From an uncultured Pseudomonadota bacterium (GTDB lineage Bacteria > Pseudomonadota > Alphaproteobacteria > RF32 > CAG-239): 64,000 nucleotides of DNA. Shown here piece after piece: positions 24,982 to 37,622 of this stretch. The translations under genes were made by a program, and so were the position numbers. Within the stretch, counting starts at the first letter, position 1. Each line of letters starts with the position of its first letter. Location: positions 28,109 to 92,108 of the forward strand of contig CASFMW010000003.1 in the NCBI GenBank assembly GCA_949295935.1, given 5' to 3'. The notes under the pieces are model-generated. The model saw only the letters and a program-made list of their open reading frames with translations. It was not told the DNA's origin and ran no database searches.

Positions 24982-25785
24982 TTAAAGAGCTGACTTCAAC
25001 TGACACAACCTAGATAGCACATAGGCTGTATCTTTCACAATTTCACCAAAGCTTCGAGGTGCTGTCAAATACAAATAATCAGTATTATCAACCCCATAAG
25101 CCAAAGTCATCGGCTTTTTCAAACTCAGCAATTCTTTACAGCGCTTGAGCAGGCTTGGCAACACAATCGGCTTTTTATAATAGACATCTTTATGACGATT
25201 ACGATCAAGCAACATTCCTTTACCATGTCGCACCACCAAGAGCAAATCAGCAAATGTTCGTTCAAGTATGCCTTGTCGGTTATCATACCAAACATCAAAA
25301 CTCTTAAAATCCATTTCCGCACAAACAATCTGCTTAGGATTATATTCATTACGAAAAACGGAAAAATAAGTTTTTTGCTTAAGACCGATATTTGTATCAA
25401 AAAATGAAAAACAGTTACCATCGACATACAGCGAACCTTTTTCAACCAACGCCCCCAAGCGTTTTATTTGACAATCAGCGCCAATAGCATAATAACAATC
25501 GCCATTATAAGCTTTCATCTGCCTACCATTTTGATATTCACCACTGCATTTTCCTGAAGGATAAAGCAAATATCCGCTTTTTACGCTAATGGAACGCACA
25601 TGAGAAACCAATACCTCCAATGCCGGAAAACTAAGAATCATACTCATCTTTGTTTCTGTGCAGTGAAGCACGGCTAGATTACGAAAAGTCCAAAATTCAC
25701 CTTTTTCAACATGTGTCTCAATACCGCCGATTTCTCTTGAAGTCACTTTCAGAACAGCTGTTCCGTTTTGAATAAATTTTTCCAT
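24982..25785 (-). CDS. Hypothetical protein (267 aa), Cys/Tyr-rich, no recognisable domain; inserted between rbfA and truB
   Basis: ORF preceded by the conserved TTGACTTTTGTCTA promoter motif; shares an F-D/S-x-x-(Y/W)-W motif with the 144/179/180-aa paralogs. Confidence 0.55.
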   Translation of the reverse strand: MEKFIQNGTAVLKVTSREIGGIETHVEKGEFWTFRNLAVLHCTETKMSMILSFPALEVLVSHVRSISVKSGYLLYPSGKCSGEYQNGRQMKAYNGDCYYAIGADCQIKRLGALVEKGSLYVDGNCFSFFDTNIGLKQKTYFSVFRNEYNPKQIVCAEMDFKSFDVWYDNRQGILERTFADLLLVVRHGKGMLLDRNRHKDVYYKKPIVLPSLLKRCKELLSLKKPMTLAYGVDNTDYLYLTAPRSFGEIVKDTAYVLSRLCQLKSAL

Positions 25786-25912: not shown

Positions 25913-26827
25913 CTAAAATTCGAGCATTAGAGATTCTGTCTTTTTAAACAATTTATTTCCAATTTTAAGGTGTTTACTAGGAATGCACTCTAAAAAGCCA
26001 CCAGAAGCCAAAACCACCTTTCGGTTCTGATTATCAAACCCCAACAATGTAAATGGCGTTGAAGAATCAGATAAGACAACCGTGTTCATCCATAAAGAAT
26101 AAAAGTCTTTTTCTTTGTTTAACAATAAAAAAGAGGCAGATTTTTCATCCCAACCATACAATCGATTATTAGATTTAAGAAAACAATGTCGGCGTGGTTT
26201 ATAAAGACGACCAACAGGTGTCAATACATCAAACCTGCCATCCAATCGCTCTCCTACAACAAATTTTCCTTGATGTCCCCAAAAATCAATTATTTCATAA
26301 TTCTTCCAAACAGTTTCACGCACCACATTTTTATTAAAATAACGAACAGTCATCGTCCCATCTGAAAAAGGAGTAATAAAAACATTGTTTTCATCTAATT
26401 TCTTTTTTCCTAACAAGACTTCATCTTCGCCACAATACCAAGATTTTTTTCCCTTTCGATATATAAAAATATAAGGAGAAAAACTAAAATCTTTTACACT
26501 GCATGAAAGTTTCACAAAAGAACATCTTTTAGAACAATAACGATAAAGAACATAAAGACCATCGAGTTTACTAAAAACTAATAAATCTCCCTCATGAAAA
26601 GAAAAGCTTCCTTTAAGTCCCTCATTATAACAAACATACTTTCTTTCCTGTTCCGAATACAGATAAGCAGCCTTCAAATCACCAATAAACGTTTGCATTC
26701 CAAATTTTGAACGAACAAAAAACTTCGTCTCGGTTAATACAAAAGATTTCATAATTATAAAGATTAAAATTAAACATAAAAATAAATTAAAGTAACCAAG
26801 AGATAGCACAAGTTTTTCATTTGTCAA
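25913..26827 (-). CDS. Hypothetical membrane-anchored protein (304 aa; single N-terminal TM helix, Tyr/Lys-rich beta-rich ectodomain)
   Basis: ORF; hydrophobic segment LVLSLGYFNLFLCLILIFII; located inside the infB-rbfA-truB-rpsO-pnp gene string. Confidence 0.55.
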   Translation of the reverse strand: MTNEKLVLSLGYFNLFLCLILIFIIMKSFVLTETKFFVRSKFGMQTFIGDLKAAYLYSEQERKYVCYNEGLKGSFSFHEGDLLVFSKLDGLYVLYRYCSKRCSFVKLSCSVKDFSFSPYIFIYRKGKKSWYCGEDEVLLGKKKLDENNVFITPFSDGTMTVRYFNKNVVRETVWKNYEIIDFWGHQGKFVVGERLDGRFDVLTPVGRLYKPRRHCFLKSNNRLYGWDEKSASFLLLNKEKDFYSLWMNTVVLSDSSTPFTLLGFDNQNRKVVLASGGFLECIPSKHLKIGNKLFKKTESLMLEF

Positions 26828-27264: not shown

Positions 27265-27389
27265 AAAACATCTCCTAAAACAAAATCTAACGCGACTATA
27301 GCACGAAAACGCCGTCAAATCAAGAAAAAACAAACGGCAGGCAAAGAGAAAATCTCCCGCCTACCGCTTTTATTGTTTTTGAAAACAGA

Positions 27390-30230
27390 CTATTTTCTTT
27401 CGGTCTTATCCATCGGCAACGGTTCTTTAGAACCACTGTTGAACAAAATAGCCTCACTGATAGCCGTGTTCTTAACCGGAATATCAGTAATCTGCTTACC
27501 GCAAATCTCAAGTCCGACACTCTTAAGAGCCGTCGCAATCGGCAAGAACAAGTCTGTATTTTCACCGCTGGCACCTGAATGAGCAAATCCAGTGACCGTA
27601 CCGTCCTTATCAATCAAAGCACCGCCCAGCGTAATATTTTGAACATAAGTATCAAGCAAGATTTCTGTACCTCTGCTCTCACTGTAACGATATCCTTTAA
27701 TCTTACCGGAATCTTCCAGATAGCCTTCACCGGTATCAAAGTCAAGAATACCAAGGCTCATATAAGTCTTCTGGTTAATCAGAGGCAAAGACAAATTGAG
27801 CGACAGCGGCGTATACTCAGTCTTTCTGTCAAGATAAAGCAGAGCCGTATTCTTATCAGGATTAATTCTAACCGCATAACCGGTAAATTGACCACCATTA
27901 ATCGTGCGCAGATTATAACTGTTGTTATCTTTGGTAATCAAATCGGCAGAAGTCAAAACAAACTGATCAGAAACAATCAAGCCCGCACCTTCTTTACCAT
28001 TGGCATTAGTAATTGAGATAATTGAAGTACGAACCTTATAAACATCTTCGGCAGAAAGAGGGATGGTATAAGGCGCACGCTCAACAATGCAAAGCATATT
28101 CTGAGCTTCGATAGCATTTTTATCATCAACAGGAACATTAACCCAAGTCTCTTTGCTCAAAGAGCCACTGGCTTTAACACCACCGTCTTCTTCAATGCTA
28201 ACCGGAATCTTGCACATCTTTTCATCTTCATCACAACAGGTATTGAAGATGCTATCGCACTTGTCACAAGGTTCATTAAGCTTGTTGTCTTCACAACCAC
28301 CATAAAACTTATTCGGTTCACAACCGCCGTAAATCTTATTATTGCAGTCACAATCAGGTCCAAACAAAGTCATGTTGTTACACGGCGTTGCCGGAGCGTC
28401 TGAAGTCAAAGCTGCGATTGGAGCAGCCACGGCAGCAACCGGAGCACCAACAACGGCTAATAACGGAGAAATACCCTCACCATCTTTAACTTCTTTTGAA
28501 TAACGCTCATCAGACGGAACCGGACTAATGCTGGGGTCAAGCGGCTCAGGAGCAGCTTCTTTACTCAACAAAATATCTGCAGGCTCAGCAACCGGTTGCT
28601 CTGTAACAACAGTCTCCTCAACCACAGCTTCTTCCAAATCAAGACTATTCAAAACAGTTGGTTGAGCATCTGTTGCAGGCTGTGCCACTGGAGCTGGAAC
28701 AGGCGCCGAAAGCGGAGCCGGCGCAGGTTCAGGAGCAGGTTGCGGCATTGGAACCGATTGTGGAGCAGCCATCGGGGCCGGAGCCGGCAATGGAGCTGGC
28801 TGCGGCGTTGGTGCCGGTTGCGGCGTTGGAAGCGGTGGAACCGGTGGAACCGGTGTAAGCGCAGAACCAACTTCCGACTGCTTATTTTCAACCGGAATCA
28901 ACGGTTGCTCTGCTTTTTGAGGAACAACCGGACTTGGCATAACTGGCTTATCATCAGGAGTATAAACATATTTTGTAACACTGTTTTTACGAGCTTCATG
29001 ATCAGTATATTGACACTTAATCGGATTATGAGCTTTTTCATGTTCAATATATTGAATCCGCTGGCTTTCTTTTTCAGCAGATGTAAAGCGATGAGAAACC
29101 ACCTTCAAAAAAGCCGGATGACTGCGAAGATTGTTAGCGGCATCAGCAAAAGCTTTTTCAACCAACAAAACCTCACCATTAGGCTCACCGCGCATCAAAT
29201 CAGCATAACCATCAGTCTCGCCCGACCAATAAATAACTTCACGGTTAATATCGGTAACCGTCCATTTAACCGTAATCTCAGAAGACCCGATACGACTGTT
29301 TTCCATAATGGCTTCATTCCAATTATACTTATCACAAATATTCATAAAATAATTGGTGATTTCTGCCGTAATCAAATACTCTGGCAAGGGGCTCGGTGTT
29401 TCTTCAATACAAACATCATCAGGAATTTTAACAATATTGAAGCAGTCTTTAAGTTGATTATCAAAAACGGAAATAAGACGCATATTGCTTTCCATCAACC
29501 GCCCTTGGTTCAAAATCGCTTCTTTGGTAAAACGACGGCAACCGAAAATACGGAATCGATAATTTCCGAGCTTTTGCATCAAAGGCCCGTTAATATCTTC
29601 ATCATTGAGCTTAAAATCAACCCATTCTAACTGGATAGGTGCATATTGCCCACATTTTCCATGAATTTTATCATAAACACTGCCGCTTGGACGAACAACA
29701 TAATTCTGCACAAAGTTATAGCGCACAACTTCTTTAACCCTAACTTTAGGAGCTTGCTGCTTTGCCTTGCATTTCTGAGGATTAATCGTGCAAGCTGAGG
29801 GTTGGACAGCAACTTTTTTATCACAAAGAATAGGATCATTTCCGCAACCTTGCCCCGGAAAGATGCTATTATCTTGCCCACTGCTCGCTTCGCAGCAAGT
29901 ACCGCCAAAAATGCTGCCATCACGATAAGTCTTGCCCTTAACCGTTACCACCGGAATATTTGCCGCTCTTCCATCTTGCTGAGGGTTCAATGCTTCTTTG
30001 CGCTGCTGAATACGAGTTGTAATTTCACCGGCATATTTGCTTTTCTGATCAAAAAAGCCCATACTCGAACTTGTATCGGCATATTCGGTCCGAATTTCTA
30101 TTTCCCCGTTGCCATCATAAGCATTATTATCATATTGAGAAGCCCAAGACGCCCTCAACGCAACAGCACTCACGCTCAGCGCCAAAACAGAACAGGCCAA
30201 CGGCTTGAAATAGCTATTTATTTTCATCAA
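27390..30230 (-). CDS. Large secreted multidomain protein (946 aa): signal peptide, Cys-containing N-terminal domain, Pro-rich PxP linker, Cys-rich CxC module, C-terminal trypsin-like (S1C/DegP-like) domain with apparent loss of catalytic His and Ser
   Basis: Signal peptide …AVALRASWA; 28.65-28.9 kb encodes PAPTPQPAPLPAPAP repeats; C-terminus aligns to S1 landmarks: VLTSADL (TAAHC with H->D), NTALLYLD, ITLGGALID (GNSGGPL with S->L). Confidence 0.85.
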   Translation of the reverse strand: MMKINSYFKPLACSVLALSVSAVALRASWASQYDNNAYDGNGEIEIRTEYADTSSSMGFFDQKSKYAGEITTRIQQRKEALNPQQDGRAANIPVVTVKGKTYRDGSIFGGTCCEASSGQDNSIFPGQGCGNDPILCDKKVAVQPSACTINPQKCKAKQQAPKVRVKEVVRYNFVQNYVVRPSGSVYDKIHGKCGQYAPIQLEWVDFKLNDEDINGPLMQKLGNYRFRIFGCRRFTKEAILNQGRLMESNMRLISVFDNQLKDCFNIVKIPDDVCIEETPSPLPEYLITAEITNYFMNICDKYNWNEAIMENSRIGSSEITVKWTVTDINREVIYWSGETDGYADLMRGEPNGEVLLVEKAFADAANNLRSHPAFLKVVSHRFTSAEKESQRIQYIEHEKAHNPIKCQYTDHEARKNSVTKYVYTPDDKPVMPSPVVPQKAEQPLIPVENKQSEVGSALTPVPPVPPLPTPQPAPTPQPAPLPAPAPMAAPQSVPMPQPAPEPAPAPLSAPVPAPVAQPATDAQPTVLNSLDLEEAVVEETVVTEQPVAEPADILLSKEAAPEPLDPSISPVPSDERYSKEVKDGEGISPLLAVVGAPVAAVAAPIAALTSDAPATPCNNMTLFGPDCDCNNKIYGGCEPNKFYGGCEDNKLNEPCDKCDSIFNTCCDEDEKMCKIPVSIEEDGGVKASGSLSKETWVNVPVDDKNAIEAQNMLCIVERAPYTIPLSAEDVYKVRTSIISITNANGKEGAGLIVSDQFVLTSADLITKDNNSYNLRTINGGQFTGYAVRINPDKNTALLYLDRKTEYTPLSLNLSLPLINQKTYMSLGILDFDTGEGYLEDSGKIKGYRYSESRGTEILLDTYVQNITLGGALIDKDGTVTGFAHSGASGENTDLFLPIATALKSVGLEICGKQITDIPVKNTAISEAILFNSGSKEPLPMDKTERK

Positions 30231-30239
30231 AATACTCCA

Positions 30240-31772
30240 TCATTTTTTATAATGCGGCATCATACGGCGGTATGACAAAGCTTCAGCTACGTGCATTTTA
30301 AGCACTTTTTCATTATTTTGCAAGTCTGCAATTGTCCTTGCTAACCGCAAAATGCGATGATAAGCTCTGGCCGAAATTTTATTTTTATCGGCATAATTGA
30401 TAAGAAGCTTCTGAGCCTCATCATCTAATACAACAGCATTATCCAGTGCTTTTCCTTTCAAATCAGCATTTGTATGACAACCCTTAAGGCCCAAAGCTTT
30501 AAAACGATCGCTCTGAATTTTTCTTGCCACCAAAACACGTTCACGAATTTGGGCCGAGGTTTCTCCGGCCTTAACCGAAGAAAGCTCCCACGGAGAAACA
30601 GCATGCATTTCTATTTGAATATCAATACGATCAAGTAAAGGACCTGAAATTTTAGATTGATATTCTGCAGCACAAAGCGGCGCCCTCGGACATTCAAATT
30701 CCGGCGTTCCGAGGTGTCCGCAACGACAAGGATTCATCGCAGCAATAAGCTGCACTTTTGCCGGATAAGTCGTATGAGCATTAACGCGAGATATGGTAAT
30801 TTTACCGTTTTCCAAGGGTTGACGCAACGCTTCCAAAGTTGCGCGATTAAACTCCGGCAACTCATCAAGAAACAAAACACCATTGTGAGCCAAAGAAATT
30901 TCACCCGGTTCGGCACGACGTCCGCCGCCAACCAAAGCTGGCGTCGACGCATTGTGGTGCGGCGCACGAAACGGACGAGAAAAACATAACATACCGCCCT
31001 TAAGCTCACCGGCAATCGAATGAATAATACTGGTTTCAAGAGCCTCTTCTGGTGTTAGCGGCGGCAAAATCCCCGGCAACCTGGCGGCCAACATAGACTT
31101 ACCAGACCCCGGAGGCCCAATCATAAGCATATTATGCCCACCGGCTGCGGCAATCTCAAGAGCACGCTTAGCACTTTCTTGACCTTTAACATCTGCCATA
31201 TCAGGATAAATATTATTTTCAGGCATTTGCTGTTTAATCGGCTGAGGAATCAACTGTGTCCCTTTGAAATGATTGATAAGCTCAAGCAAATTATGAGGCG
31301 CCAAAATCTCTTTAATACCAGACCAAGCAGCTTCTGAACCTTGCTCTGCCGGACAAACCAACCCTTTGTTAAGACGATTAGCATGAATAGCCGCCGGAAG
31401 AATACCGTTTACCGGCAAGATAGAAGCATCAAGCCCAAGCTCACCAAGCACGATATAGTTATCTACTTCCTCCAGAGGAATAATCCCCAGACAAGAGATA
31501 ATACCAAGCGCCACTGGCAAATCATAATGAGAACCTTCTTTGAGCAAATCTGCCGGCGCAAGATTAATTGTCACTCTCTTTGCCGGAAAACTTATTCCTA
31601 TAGAATTAAGCGCTGCTCGCACACGTTCGCGACTTTCGGCCACAGCCTTATCCGGCAACCCGACAATAGAAAAAGCAGGCATTCCCGAAGAAATCTGAAC
31701 CTGCAAATCCACATCTTGAGTATCCAAGCCATTAAAAGCAAGAGTGTTAACGCGGCTAAGCATGCCTACCAC
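30240..31772 (-). CDS. comM: YifB/ComM family Mg-chelatase-like AAA+ ATPase
   Basis: 510 aa; N-terminal Lon-protease-like domain, Walker A GPPGSGKS, ChlI-type AAA+ core, C-terminal domain. Confidence 0.93.
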   Translation of the reverse strand: MVGMLSRVNTLAFNGLDTQDVDLQVQISSGMPAFSIVGLPDKAVAESRERVRAALNSIGISFPAKRVTINLAPADLLKEGSHYDLPVALGIISCLGIIPLEEVDNYIVLGELGLDASILPVNGILPAAIHANRLNKGLVCPAEQGSEAAWSGIKEILAPHNLLELINHFKGTQLIPQPIKQQMPENNIYPDMADVKGQESAKRALEIAAAGGHNMLMIGPPGSGKSMLAARLPGILPPLTPEEALETSIIHSIAGELKGGMLCFSRPFRAPHHNASTPALVGGGRRAEPGEISLAHNGVLFLDELPEFNRATLEALRQPLENGKITISRVNAHTTYPAKVQLIAAMNPCRCGHLGTPEFECPRAPLCAAEYQSKISGPLLDRIDIQIEMHAVSPWELSSVKAGETSAQIRERVLVARKIQSDRFKALGLKGCHTNADLKGKALDNAVVLDDEAQKLLINYADKNKISARAYHRILRLARTIADLQNNEKVLKMHVAEALSYRRMMPHYKK

Positions 31773-32107
31773 CGCGGCGTACGCTCACCGTCACGCCAAC
31801 GGCGAGTAGGATAAGTTCCGCGATGCAAAAAGTCATAGCTTGCGGTTTTATAAGGGATATCCCTATAGCGAACATATCCTTTTCTTTCAAAAATCAAAGC
31901 ACATTCTTCAGAACTGGTTGTCGGCGTTGAATAGCAATGGACAATATATTTGCTCATCGGATTAAGCAGGCTGATTTTGGTCGGCGTATTAACAAAACAA
32001 GGAGGCGCCGCCACATAATTAACCTTTCCTTCCTCGGGAAATTCCCAAAGAGAAGAACATGCGCTCAAAATAAAAAGCAACGGAGCGATAAGAAAAATCC
32101 TGAACAT
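31766..32107 (-). CDS. Small lipoprotein (lipobox LFILSACSS), C-terminus overlapping comM start by 7 bp
   Basis: ORF with lipobox after MFRIFLIAPL; Arg-rich C-terminal tail. Confidence 0.45.
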   Translation of the reverse strand: MFRIFLIAPLLFILSACSSLWEFPEEGKVNYVAAPPCFVNTPTKISLLNPMSKYIVHCYSTPTTSSEECALIFERKGYVRYRDIPYKTASYDFLHRGTYPTRRWRDGERTPRW

Positions 32108-32193
32108 AACACCAATTCCAAAGATAATTTCAAATAATAGCAACCATAGCATTTAATAATTAAAATATCCTAAATCTTTTTGAAAAATTTTTC

Positions 32194-33427: not shown

Positions 33428-33467
33428 CAAAAAAGCTCTGAGTAGTGAAACTCAGAGCTTTTTTTAA
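33428..33467. terminator. Bidirectional terminator between rplI (+) and the 180-aa paralog (-): AGCTCTGAG-tagtgaa-CTCAGAGCT flanked by A/T runs
   Basis: Perfect 9-bp stem. Confidence 0.75.
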
Positions 33468-34006
33468 TCTAAAGAAGCAACCGGACAGGCAAAATAAGTA
33501 TTGAGTTTTCCACCAGCAATAAGACTATCAGGACTATCCAAAAAATAAACAATTCCAGCAGCCCCTCCATTTCCATACTCACTATCTGTCCACAAAATAT
33601 CATGAGGACAAATCGGCTCAAAGCCCATTCTTATTCGCTGAATATTAATCTGCGTTAAACGAGGACAAACTTCTACCAGCCAAAAATGCCTATCCCCGCG
33701 AGAACATTTATTGCCAAGAATAGTTTGTTTTTCACAATACTTTCCTGCTTCAAACCAATCTAAATGATTAGTTGAATGCTCAATAAATACAGCTTTTCCA
33801 GCAATAATTATTGCTTTAGGATGTACCCCTTTCAAAGGAAACCAAGAACGTTTATCATTTTCATAAACAACTTCAAAAGAAAAGCGTTCTTTAGGACCTC
33901 CTTTCTGAACAAAATACCCTCCAAAATAACGAGCAATTTCTGCCGGAAGAATTTTATTCTCTTTCATAAGAGTTACCACTTGTTCTATAACTTCTTTTTT
34001 TTCCAT
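33464..34006 (-). CDS. Paralog-family protein 1 (180 aa) of a three-member small-protein family; possible SUKH/Smi1-Knr4-like fold (speculative)
   Basis: Shares with 34123-34662 and 40491-40925 the core ...(V/L)(V/L)Y(K/E)N..(K)RS..PL.GV.P.AI..GK... and YC(E/Q)KQ...G...FW and F(D/S)xx(Y/W)W blocks. Confidence 0.7.
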   Translation of the reverse strand: MEKKEVIEQVVTLMKENKILPAEIARYFGGYFVQKGGPKERFSFEVVYENDKRSWFPLKGVHPKAIIIAGKAVFIEHSTNHLDWFEAGKYCEKQTILGNKCSRGDRHFWLVEVCPRLTQINIQRIRMGFEPICPHDILWTDSEYGNGGAAGIVYFLDSPDSLIAGGKLNTYFACPVASLD

Positions 34007-34122: not shown

Positions 34123-34662
34123 TCACGGCATCAATAACATCGGTCGAACACTAAAATTTTGAGATTTAGAAGCAATTTTCTCCACTCCTTTCTTAAAACA
34201 AGAACAGGAACATCCATACCTAGAAGAATAAATCCAATAAGCAGAAGAAAAATCAATTTTTTGCCCACCAAGAATTTCTATCTCCTGATTAATGTTATCA
34301 GCATTCTTAAACAAGAAATCCCAAATCTTACGAGTACCCATATTGGCCGAATAACCATAAAATTTAATTTGAGCAGCTCCATCTAAAGCTTCTGCAAAAG
34401 AAAGCCTTTGTGGCAAATCCCAAAGCGAAACAAAACAACGTTCCACAAAAATAGCAATTGGAATCTCGCCCAAAACTTTACAATCATAAACGTGCCCTGA
34501 CTTATACAAAACCTTAAAAGGCAAAGGCTCAGAAACAACACTCACTTCTGTATCAGCAACAAATTTCCCGCCCCATCGTTTGCATAAATCATCAATTGAA
34601 ATACCTTTTCTCAACATCTCACTAAAAAGGTAATCTACCGCTTCACTTTTACTTAGTTCCAT
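34123..34662 (-). CDS. Paralog-family protein 2 (179 aa)
   Basis: Homologous to 33464-34006 (N-terminal ...RWGGKFV... vs ...RYFGGYFV...; core PLPFKVLYKSG...GEIPIAIFVER) and to 40491-40925. Confidence 0.7.
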   Translation of the reverse strand: MELSKSEAVDYLFSEMLRKGISIDDLCKRWGGKFVADTEVSVVSEPLPFKVLYKSGHVYDCKVLGEIPIAIFVERCFVSLWDLPQRLSFAEALDGAAQIKFYGYSANMGTRKIWDFLFKNADNINQEIEILGGQKIDFSSAYWIYSSRYGCSCSCFKKGVEKIASKSQNFSVRPMLLMP

Positions 34663-35114: not shown

Positions 35115-37622
35115 TTAAAGGGTTGGAGCTATCTCCTCCACCTCATAACACTCAATAAAATCGCCAACTTGAATGTCGTTGTAGTTTTCAAAACTCATAC
35201 CACATTCATAACCGGATTTTACTTCACGAACATCTTCTTTGAAGCGTTTGAGTTGAGCAAGAGCACCATCGTGAATAACAACGTTATCACGCAACAGACG
35301 AACCTTTGCCCCACGCTTAACAAAGCCCTCGGTAACCATACAACCGCCAACTTTACCAACGCCGGTAATATTGAAGACATTGCGAATTTCAGCATATCCG
35401 ATAATCTTTTCTTTAAGCTCAGGCGTTAACATTCCCTCCAGCGCTTTCTTAATATCGTCAACCACATCATAGATGATAGAATAATAACGAATATCAACAC
35501 CGTCTTGACGGGCAAGATCACGCGCATGAGGAATGGCTCGAACGTTAAATCCGATAATAAAGGCATTTGAAGCCTTCGCCAAAGTAACGTCTGAATCCGA
35601 AATAGGACCAACCGCCGAATGCAAAATCTGAACACTGACTTCGTCATTAGAGAGCTTTTTAATTGTTCCCTCAATAGCTTCGATAGAACCTTGAACGTCG
35701 GCCTTGATAATAACCGGAAGATGTTTAACTTCACCGGATTTAATTTTATCAAGCATTTGCTCCATTGCCGATTTCGCACTCTTAACAAGCTTAGCGTCAC
35801 GCTCTTTACGAATACGATAATTGGTAACTTCTTTAGCCTGAGCCTCGTCTTTAACGATAACAAAATCATCACCTGCGGCCGGTGTACCTTGCAAACCAAG
35901 GATTTCAACCGGAGTGGCCGGACCGGCCTCAGTCATTTTCTTACCATGTTCATTAAACATCGCACGAATATGACCCCATTCTTTTCCGGCAATACAAATA
36001 TCGCCGACATGAAGTGTTCCGTTCTGAACCAAAACAGTTGCAACCGAACCACGGCCTTTTTCCATTTTAGCTTCAACCACAGCACCTTGAGCCAAACGGT
36101 TTGGATTTGCTTTCAAATCAAGAATTTCTGCTTGCAACAAAATAGCTTCGACCAACTTATCAATATTGATTCTCTTCTTAGCAGAAACCTCGGCGCACAA
36201 ACTATCACCGCCCATCTCTTCAACCGCAATCCCATGTTGCAGCAAAGCTGTCTTAACTTTCATCGGATCAGCACCCGGCAAATCGATTTTATTAATAGCA
36301 ACCACAATTGGCACTTCAGCGGCTTGAGCATGACGAATAGCTTCAACTGTCTGCGGCATAATACCATCATTAGCAGCTACAACCAAAACCACAATATCCG
36401 TAACTTTTGCACCACGAGCACGCATTTCAGAGAAAGCCTCGTGTCCCGGAGTATCAATAAAGGTAATTTTTTTACCACCGGCAACTTCAATCTGATAAGC
36501 ACCGATATGCTGTGTAATACCACCAGCTTCACGAGCAGCCACATTGGTCTCACGCAAAGCATCAAGCAATGATGTTTTACCATGGTCAACGTGTCCCATA
36601 ACCGTAACAACCGGCGCTCTTGGCAACAAATCATCAGCCGTATCTTGCGGACCGGTCAAACCTTGTTCCACATCACTATCGGCCACACGTTTAACCTTAT
36701 GACCAAATTCTTCAACCACGATCTGAGCCGTATCAGCATCAATTGGTTGGTTAATAGTAGCCATAACACCGAGAGCCATCAACTTTTTAATAACCTCAGC
36801 ACTTTTTTCTGCCATACGGTTAGCCAATTCCTGAACAGTAATAATCTCAGGAACAACAACCTCTTTAATAATTTTTTCAGCAGGTTGTTGCGGAGCTTGC
36901 TGAGGTTTCGGCTGTTTTTTCTTAAAGCGACGACGCGGAGCTCCATAACCATAATCATCGTCATCATCATCCATTGAGCCCATAACATTATGAAGATTAA
37001 CTTTCCCTCCACGACGTTGTGGTTCAAAGCTACGCTTCATAATTTTTTTGCGCTCTTGTTCAAAAACTTCTTCTTTGCTTAAAGACTTTCCGCCTTTCTG
37101 AGAACGATAAGAACTATCATCATTATCTTCATCATCATCAAAATCACGAGGTCTCTTATCCTTAGCCTTTGAAGCTGCACGTTCTTCTGCCGCTGCTGAT
37201 TTTTCAGGATTAACGGCAGAATCAGCCTTAGCCTCAACTTTTTGCGGCTGCTTAACTTCTTGCTTTTGCTGACTTTGAGTCTTTTCTTTTTCTTGTTCTT
37301 CAGCCTGTTTTTGCGCCTTAAGAGCCTCTTCTTGCTCACGACGCAACTGACGTTGACGCTCTTTTTCTTCCTCTTCAAGACGACGCTTTGCCTCATGCTC
37401 CTTTGCCTCGGCAATCAACTTAAGCTTAGCAGCCGTAGCATCATCAATCTGCACTTTAGGCTCTTCTTTTTTAGCTGCAGAAATAATTCTTTTTTTGCGC
37501 ACCTCAACCTGAACGACCTTTTTGCCGTCATTATGGCTTTTAGCGGCATCCCCCACATTTTTAAGGGTAAGGGTAGATTTCCCTGATAATGTCAACCTGC
37601 TTTTTGCACTATCTTCTGTCAT
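35115..37622 (-). CDS. infB: Translation initiation factor IF-2
   Basis: 835 aa; Lys/Glu/Ala-rich N-terminal region, GTPase domain ([16 protein letters not shown]), C-terminal IF2 domains. Confidence 0.97.

Follow-up and report, generated by a model that had tools for sequence, protein, structure and literature searches.

What is the role of a protein that combines a signal peptide, a long proline-rich linker and a trypsin-like domain in which catalytic residues appear to have been replaced? This question is raised by a 946-residue open reading frame (ORF) at 27390-30230 in a 64,000-nucleotide stretch of contig CASFMW010000003.1 from an uncultured alphaproteobacterium (the whole stretch is called the window here). 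The original prediction saw a dead protease scaffold on a stalk, as in surface or periplasmic binding or adhesin-like proteins. The ORF lies on the minus strand, and its product is an HtrA-derived pseudoprotease with an undescribed N-terminal domain (N-domain), encoded in a conserved gene trio. Residue numbers follow the 946-residue scheme throughout, although the likely product has 945 residues.

Our results reveal homology between the C-terminal domain (C-domain) and protease domains of the HtrA type (S1C). The chymotrypsin-type domain proposed earlier was recovered by a hidden Markov model (HMM) search: Pfam Trypsin_2 (PF13365) matched residues 748-881 with 32.5 bits against a gathering score of 27.6 (E=1.7e-7). 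In addition, a profile of 14 family C-domains matched the solved M. tuberculosis HtrA1 (E=4e-4), spanning both barrels. This profile alignment paired FVLTSAD with YIVTNAH, KNTALL with KTDLAVL, and vTlGGALID with GNSGGPLID. Alignment to active relatives with MAFFT gave the same column pairing, D/N/L in the family versus H/D/S. A Pfam scan at E<=10 returned Trypsin_2 alone and thus no PDZ domain, for which the 34-residue C-terminal tail is too short. Searching the PDB with the single whole sequence returned only low-complexity Pro-rich matches, the C-domain alone gave sub-threshold matches only, and NCBIfam yielded only a far sub-threshold match to MarP.

We examined the catalytic positions in 81 full-length relatives taken from species-representative loci. 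The His and Ser positions had been described as substituted, and they are, by D763 and L868; the Asp position is replaced as well, by N794. Across the family, 76 relatives have D at the His position, 2 have E and 3 have N; at the Asp position, all 81 have N; at the Ser position, L occurs in 13, V in 30, I in 34 and T in 4. T867, just before the Ser position, is invariant (81/81), and the Gly-Gly of the oxyanion loop is kept in 79/81; together with the ...LID that follows, it forms a remnant of the L1/oxyanion loop, VQxxTxGGALID. An intact H-D-S triad was found in 0/81 relatives and in none of the tier-1 representatives at 50% identity. Judged from these alignments, the C-domain of the pseudoprotease lacks all three catalytic residues. 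Because all three are replaced family-wide, the case for a dead protease is stronger than originally stated. Two cysteines, C714 and C910, are invariant in the family C-domain and are not present in active relatives.

An AlphaFold model of the C-domain, made from a 14-sequence alignment, had a mean predicted local distance difference test score (pLDDT) of 45; the first barrel was modelled (50-78), while the second (~25-35) gave no confident model. When this weak model was compared with the PDB using Foldseek, the matches listed were overwhelmingly to HtrA/S1C structures (HtrA2, DegQ, HtrA1, MucD), and also included the MamO protease domain (5hm9) and, as a top match, the S1C domain of RsgI9 (7sjy). 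By HMM and Foldseek, the domain thus belongs to the same fold family as HtrA, DegP, DegQ and DegS (MEROPS S1C). Compared with HtrA/DegP, the window protein lacks the triad and the PDZ domains and carries three additional parts: the N-domain, the linker and the C-terminal tail.

The origin of the family emerged from an exhaustive search with the N-domain profile, which recovered 184 representatives at 50% identity. Three groups can be distinguished. Among the 41 best (E<1e-30) are the long proteins, which measure 529-1176 aa and all lack an intact triad. An intermediate group (P0151-P0158, P0235) carries G/K/S/N/R, D/G/N, T/S and L at the four tabulated positions. The second tier consists of ~430-460-aa proteins (E 1e-20 to 1e-5) that match at profile positions ~77-270. 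In the second-tier proteins that we checked, Trypsin_2 matched with ~100 bits directly after the N-domain. Partial NCBIfam matches to DegP/HtrA were present, 48 of 63 had a lipobox, and most had H-D-S. The N-domains of these ~450-aa proteins and of the pseudoprotease family are collinear over ~200 residues, with two Cys in common, and the C-domains of the shorter proteins match the family HMM with ~60 bits. Since the same collinear N-domain and protease domain occur in lipoproteins that mostly keep the triad, the pseudoprotease family is a degenerate offshoot of them.

The ~450-aa lipoprotein proteases (for example MCK5296163.1, labelled "serine protease [Alphaproteobacteria bacterium]", and P0168, P0170, P0175, P0178, P0181 and P0196) resemble the window protein in these two collinear domains and in having no PDZ domain. 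They differ in that most have a lipobox and an intact H-D-S triad, without the long linker, the Cys-rich extension and the ...RK tail. The two for which we examined the context are not beside comM, which is the neighbor of the pseudoprotease gene. By this comparison, the pseudoprotease family has gained the linker, the Cys-containing extension and the ...RK tail and has lost the lipobox. Degenerate triads are also found among the ~450-aa proteins (P0192, P0232, P0248), and His alone is changed in P0198, P0222, P0239, P0241, P0249, P0254, P0257 and P0268; triad loss therefore seems to have been recurrent and independent within the superfamily.

A database search returned 1,162 relatives, none with a functional name, the few that bear a label being termed hypothetical or uncharacterized; their sources were labelled "Alphaproteobacteria bacterium" or were "Azospirillum sp. 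CAG" metagenome-assembled genomes (MAGs). At least 249 stretches among species-representative genomes encode a relative, with a single copy per locus and no annotation beyond "hypothetical protein". All 80 stretches that were retrieved derive from MAGs of gut, rumen or faecal origin; the label is Alphaproteobacteria in all but a few, and those with other labels are probably mis-binned. The carriers correspond, we presume, to GTDB order RF32. Our literature search found no description of this pseudoprotease family.

We asked how the two domains are constrained. In the family alignment, conserved blocks cover residues ~196-407 and ~696-946. Against the closest unsaturated relative (L007), the ratio of nonsynonymous to synonymous substitution rates (dN/dS) was 0.011 for the N-domain and 0.053 for the dead protease domain, versus ~0.10 for both the linker and the N-terminal extension. 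Thus, both globular domains are under strong purifying selection. The low dN/dS indicates that the dead domain is being maintained and is not decaying.

The original prediction placed a single Cys-containing domain of ~400 aa at the N-terminus. Cysteines are indeed present, and the region is really two parts, a variable extension (residues 31-195) and the conserved N-domain (residues 196-407). The extension, which is not present in the active ~450-aa relatives, contains two (R/Q)D(G/N)SIF(G/P)G..C repeats at residues ~103-129 (29844-29924, minus strand). Similar short repeats were noted in relatives P0030, P0032 and P0033, the last with at least 3 copies of GP(I/L)(F/I)DTG(S/P)C, and in other members the linker carries Cys-containing short repeats of a different kind, C(E/S)PSxF. 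The N-domain is marked by the motifs APIQLEWVDF ... LGNYRFRIFGCRR ... MNxCDxY(N/D)W ... AFADAxxNL. No Pfam family matched it at E<=10, either in the pseudoprotease family or in the active relatives, and searches with two profiles (A2, A5) found no PDB sequence. Invariant Cys occur in both globular domains, consistent with disulfides.

An AlphaFold model of the N-domain had a mean pLDDT of 53 and was confident only at residues 249-410 (pLDDT 75-88), where helices are followed by three long antiparallel strands and more helices; the first half was poor. Foldseek matched this model to CsgG (E 2.5e-4) and LptE (1.3e-3), with E values up to 5e-3 for the two, and also to the Caulobacter lipoprotein CC_3750 and to Cj1090c. 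The matches to CsgG and LptE concern the confidently modelled half, with no relation at the sequence level, and the window family, unlike these proteins, has no lipid anchor. We take a CsgG/LptE-like outer-membrane-lipoprotein fold as a lead and not a result.

Between the two globular domains, the linker is hypervariable, with a length of 51-406 aa in the family (median 142) and of only 51-70 aa in many members. Its composition is unrelated between members, being rich in Pro/Ala, Thr/Pro, Gly/Ser/Val, Glu or Cys, and protein length differs even among close strains (946, 947 and 931 aa). In the window protein, part of the linker is rich in proline and encoded by GC-rich DNA, as had been predicted (35% Pro; GC 0.59, with 0.41 for the whole 64-kb window). 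The imperfect DNA repeats ascribed to it are real but modest: Tandem Repeats Finder detected a single 9/18-nt array of ~3 copies (28801-28855). The Cys-rich module is present as described (residues 616-673, 10 Cys in 58) and is conserved among closer relatives only. Because the linker varies in both length and composition, the Pro-rich stalk and the CxC module are features of a subclade and not of the family. Just N-terminal to the Cys-rich module is an Ala/Val-rich hydrophobic segment at residues 590-608. In the three closest relatives its mean hydrophobicity is 2.29-2.31, and the copy in the window is identical to that of L008. As a mature-region segment of this kind occurs in only 5/77 relatives, we rejected a transmembrane linker segment as a family feature. 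The 34-residue C-terminal tail is not present in active relatives, and its last three residues are E/D/G-R-K in 74 of 77 unique proteins; the window protein has the hydrophilic end ...ERK.

To place the start of the protein, we examined the 5′ end of the gene. The DNA there reads ...AAAAAATGA TGGAGTATT TTG ATG AAA..., with the comM stop followed by GGAG and, 7 nt on, by the ATG at 30227. This ATG lies 12 nt past the comM stop and starts a protein beginning MKINSYF; homologues start MKI.... The GGAG spacing, the comM gap and the homologue starts therefore make the 945-aa product most likely. The N-terminus has a Sec-signal layout, MKINSYFK-PLACSVLALSVSAVAL-RASWA/SQ, in which an n-region with K is followed by hydrophobic PLACSVLALSVSAVAL and then SWA/SQ. 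Read in this way, the protein looks like a Sec-exported one, in keeping with the signal peptide proposed earlier, and an N-terminal hydrophobic segment is found in most relatives. The N-termini in the family alignment contain no conserved lipobox; Cys13 is not conserved among relatives and so is not a lipobox.

The pseudoprotease gene also belongs to a gene trio. The minus-strand order in the window is a small ORF (31766-32152), comM, the pseudoprotease gene, a hairpin terminator and rbfA. The order small gene, comM, pseudoprotease is kept in every locus that reaches far enough upstream, mostly 12-19 nt separate comM from the pseudoprotease gene, and the trio is divergent from rpsF-rpsR-rplI across the family. 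The small gene encodes a lipoprotein of 107-230 aa with two conserved Cys and, in nearly all of 74 unique copies, a lipobox. Its C-terminus, ...IPYKxAxYDxLxxxTYPTRRWRxGExxPRW-COOH, is strongly conserved (loci L003-L085). In the window, the stop codon of the small gene overlaps with the beginning of the listed comM ORF. No Pfam family matched it, and a large database held only 8 homologous clusters, all unnamed; it is restricted to the carrier lineage. We rejected the possibility that the comM linkage is older than the family, since the genes of the active relatives and of the intermediate group have unrelated neighborhoods. Two of the intermediate proteins, P0155 and P0156, adjoin a histidine-biosynthesis gene (Pfam His_biosynth).

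A model that accommodates most of these data, to which we assign a probability of about 0.6, is that the window protein descends from a two-domain lipoprotein serine protease of Alphaproteobacteria, is exported through Sec, has no catalytic activity and acts as a periplasmic binding or scaffold protein. Proteolysis is almost certainly not its job. The protein would stay in the periplasm or cell envelope and would work by binding, not cutting. Its dead domain, with the VQxxTxGGALID loop, would probably hold a polypeptide or other ligand, its N-domain would attach to a partner in the envelope, for which the co-encoded small lipoprotein is a candidate, and its linker would be a flexible tether only. 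The periplasm is the default destination of a Sec-exported protein in a diderm, and as no outer-membrane export or anchoring module was detectable, this location is probable. The non-enzymatic binding role that the original prediction favored is reasonable.

Several points weigh against this model. The conservation of D763, N794 and T867 could point to a novel site for a ligand or metal, or even to a different chemistry, instead of simple peptide binding. The conserved operon partner ComM is cytoplasmic, not an obvious fit to an envelope role, the periplasmic placement is a probable one read from the sequence, and segment 590-608 could, from its hydrophobicity, span the membrane in the window subclade. 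Neither AlphaFold model is of good quality (mean pLDDT of 45 for the C-domain and 53 for the N-domain, each made from 14 aligned sequences), so the groove geometry and the CsgG/LptE-like assignment are tentative; the Foldseek matches to CsgG and LptE have template-modelling (TM) scores of 0.2-0.46 and root-mean-square deviations of 6-18 Å on a weak model. Finally, the sources label the ~450-aa active relatives only "serine protease" or "serine protease Do".

A precedent suggests an alternative. MamO, an alphaproteobacterial (Magnetospirillum) protein with a degenerate HtrA-like active site, is reported to be incapable of protease activity, binds metal at a surface di-histidine site and activates MamE-dependent proteolysis non-catalytically; it has a C-terminal transporter domain and is encoded in the magnetosome island, and pseudoproteases arose repeatedly after duplication in the magnetosome system (PMC4794232). 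By analogy, the window protein could form mixed oligomers with, or allosterically activate, an active HtrA-type protease encoded elsewhere. Active two-domain relatives do exist in Alphaproteobacteria, and degenerate triads recur among the ~450-aa proteins, both consistent with such a partnership. However, no paralogue is encoded within the 64-kb window or by an adjoining gene in any locus, and the active relatives we examined come from other contexts. We consider this alternative unlikely. MamO and the window protein share an HtrA-family domain with a degenerate site. In MamO, His and Asp are retained and the nucleophile position holds Thr; in the window family, all three residues are replaced. 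No MamO-like transporter domain or magnetosome context was seen: Trypsin_2 is the sole Pfam domain, and the surrounding genes are comM and ribosomal protein genes.

The original prediction also raised an adhesin-like protein on a long Pro-rich stalk, and a surface adhesin would hold out its dead domain on that stalk to bind host or microbial gut ligands. The signal-like N-terminus, the long low-complexity linker whose length differs between close strains, and the gut or rumen origin of all carriers are compatible with this idea, as is the S1C domain of RsgI9. This anti-sigma factor of Clostridium thermocellum has an extracytoplasmic protease-like domain described as cellulose-binding, that is, polysaccharide-binding (PMC12203970). 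RsgI9 is a membrane-anchored protein of a Gram-positive bacterium with an NTF2-like partner domain, an architecture unrelated to that of the window protein. Against the idea, the stalk itself is not conserved: its composition is unrelated between members, and its length varies between 51 and 406 aa, being only 51-70 aa in many of them. With Trypsin_2 as the sole Pfam match, no conserved lipobox and a hydrophilic ...ERK end, we saw no autotransporter barrel, sorting signal, anchor or other surface-export domain, although novel export signals are possible. Moreover, the lipoprotein proteases to which the protein is related are of a type usual inside the envelope. Given the non-conserved stalk and a search that revealed no surface-export feature, the adhesin reading is not supported, and we regard it as improbable.

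It is also possible, though doubtful, that the lipoprotein, ComM and the pseudoprotease form one module linking the envelope to a cytoplasmic ComM helicase; such a module could be, for example, a lineage-specific DNA-uptake or envelope-surveillance apparatus. The dead domain, with its D-N-T pocket, and the RK tail would then be a new ligand-binding or signalling element, with the N-domain docking to the lipoprotein. The strictness of the trio is notable against the variable downstream side. However, all carriers belong to one lineage, so the synteny may be inherited and not functional.

Could the protein still be an enzyme, with D763, N794, T867 and the Gly-Gly loop forming a non-canonical catalytic site? 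The near-invariance of these residues (D 76/81, N 81/81, T 81/81, GG 79/81) and the strong constraint on the domain would fit. However, the nucleophile position is aliphatic (L/V/I) in 77/81 relatives and no His aligns to the general-base position. T867 aligns with the residue preceding the nucleophile, the Asn of HtrA GNSGG, and in the chymotrypsin fold this residue is not placed for attack. Even MamO, which has Thr exactly where the nucleophile would be, reportedly has a degenerate site incapable of protease activity (PMC4794232). A surviving catalytic role is thus very unlikely.

Hardly probable at all is that, in the window subclade, segment 590-608 is a transmembrane helix that leaves the N-domain on one side of the inner membrane and the Cys-module/C-domain on the other: its mean hydrophobicity over a 19-residue window is ~2.3 versus the usual threshold of 1.6 and it is kept in the three closest relatives, but a comparable segment occurs in 5/77 members only, it is an Ala-rich low-complexity stretch with two prolines, and the invariant C714/C910 pair fits an oxidizing compartment better.

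Few studies have dealt with bacterial pseudoenzymes, and among those derived from HtrA our literature search found one well-studied example, MamO; the window family is a second, far more widespread case. The series from active lipoprotein proteases through intermediate degenerate proteins to the D-N-T family could be used to study how a protease scaffold is repurposed. The family also marks its lineage cleanly and is a candidate envelope factor in organisms that have never been cultured. No current view is overturned, and the function of the pseudoprotease is one that we infer.

Table 1. Features of the pseudoprotease gene and its surroundings in the window (residues numbered in the 946-aa scheme)
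Feature	Coordinates	Strand	Basis or remark
Intrinsic-terminator-like hairpin, then U-run, ~20 nt past the pseudoprotease stop	27322..27369	-	-23.8 kcal/mol, z=-5.3
Pseudoprotease coding sequence including stop	27390..30227	-	945 aa from ATG; ORF listing extends to TTG 30230 (946 aa)
Family-specific C-terminal tail, residues 913-946, ends ...KEPLPMDKTERK	27393..27494	-	Family alignment
Degenerate HtrA-type domain (S1C, Pfam Trypsin_2), residues 696-912	27495..28145	-	Pfam, profile, MAFFT, Foldseek, dN/dS
T867 and L868 codons (TLGGAL vs NSGGPL); L868 at catalytic Ser position	27627..27632	-	Alignments
N794 codon at catalytic Asp position (KNTALL vs RDVALL)	27849..27851	-	N in 81/81 relatives
D763 codon at catalytic His position (FVLTSAD vs xxTNxH)	27942..27944	-	Profile and MAFFT alignments
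Hypervariable inter-domain linker, residues 408-695	28146..29009	-	Family alignment
Cys-rich module, residues 616-673	28212..28385	-	10 Cys in 58 residues, NK(I/F)YGGCE repeats
Ala/Val-rich hydrophobic segment LLAVVGAPVAAVAAPIAAL, residues 590-608	28407..28463	-	Kyte-Doolittle mean ~2.3
Pro-rich stretch, residues 425-524	28659..28958	-	35% Pro, 16% Ala, DNA GC 0.59
Conserved N-domain, residues 196-407	29010..29645	-	Family alignment, profiles
Variable Cys-containing N-terminal extension, residues 31-195	29646..30140	-	Family alignment
Signal-peptide-like N-terminus, residues 2-30 (MKINSYFKPLACSVLALSVSAVALRASWA/SQ)	30141..30227	-	Read from sequence; homologues have equivalent N-termini
comM/yifB-type Mg-chelatase-like AAA+ gene, directly upstream	30240..31772	-	Neighbor in family loci
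Small lipoprotein gene, lipobox LSAC	31766..32107	-	Likely start is the Met 16 residues before the lipobox Cys

The pseudoprotease gene had been placed in the segment that breaks the linkage of infB and rbfA, next to comM. It does lie there, inside the stretch that separates infB (35115-37622) from rbfA and directly between comM and rbfA; the comM adjacency is family-wide, while rbfA is next downstream only in the window and the four closest loci (L001, L002, L006, L007). In the next-closest species (L008-L018), rbfA is found beyond the rpsF-rpsR-rplI cluster on the opposite strand. The difference in rbfA position suggests a recent local rearrangement. The hairpin past the pseudoprotease stop probably marks the end of the operon. 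A consensus terminator scan missed it, presumably because a shorter stem was drawn, with a loop above the 8-nt limit. Since this hairpin is accompanied by a promoter-like site (27323-27295) ahead of rbfA, rbfA seems to be transcribed separately here and not with nusA-infB. We therefore rejected a meaningful rbfA adjacency, which is limited to the four closest loci and interrupted by the terminator-like hairpin. Similarly, hslV-hslU lies directly downstream in 14/71 loci, including L003 and L004, and with adjacency in these 14 only, hslVU was rejected as a conserved downstream partner.

Four other ORFs in this part of the window, at 24982-25785, 25913-26827, 33464-34006 and 34123-34662 on the minus strand, are low in GC (0.31-0.38, versus 0.41 for the window), and none matches a Pfam family. 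The first pair is situated between rbfA and truB, the second between rplI and infB. These ORFs and the comM trio interrupt the usual nusA-infB-rbfA-truB-pnp row, and the four ORFs may be acquired insertions.

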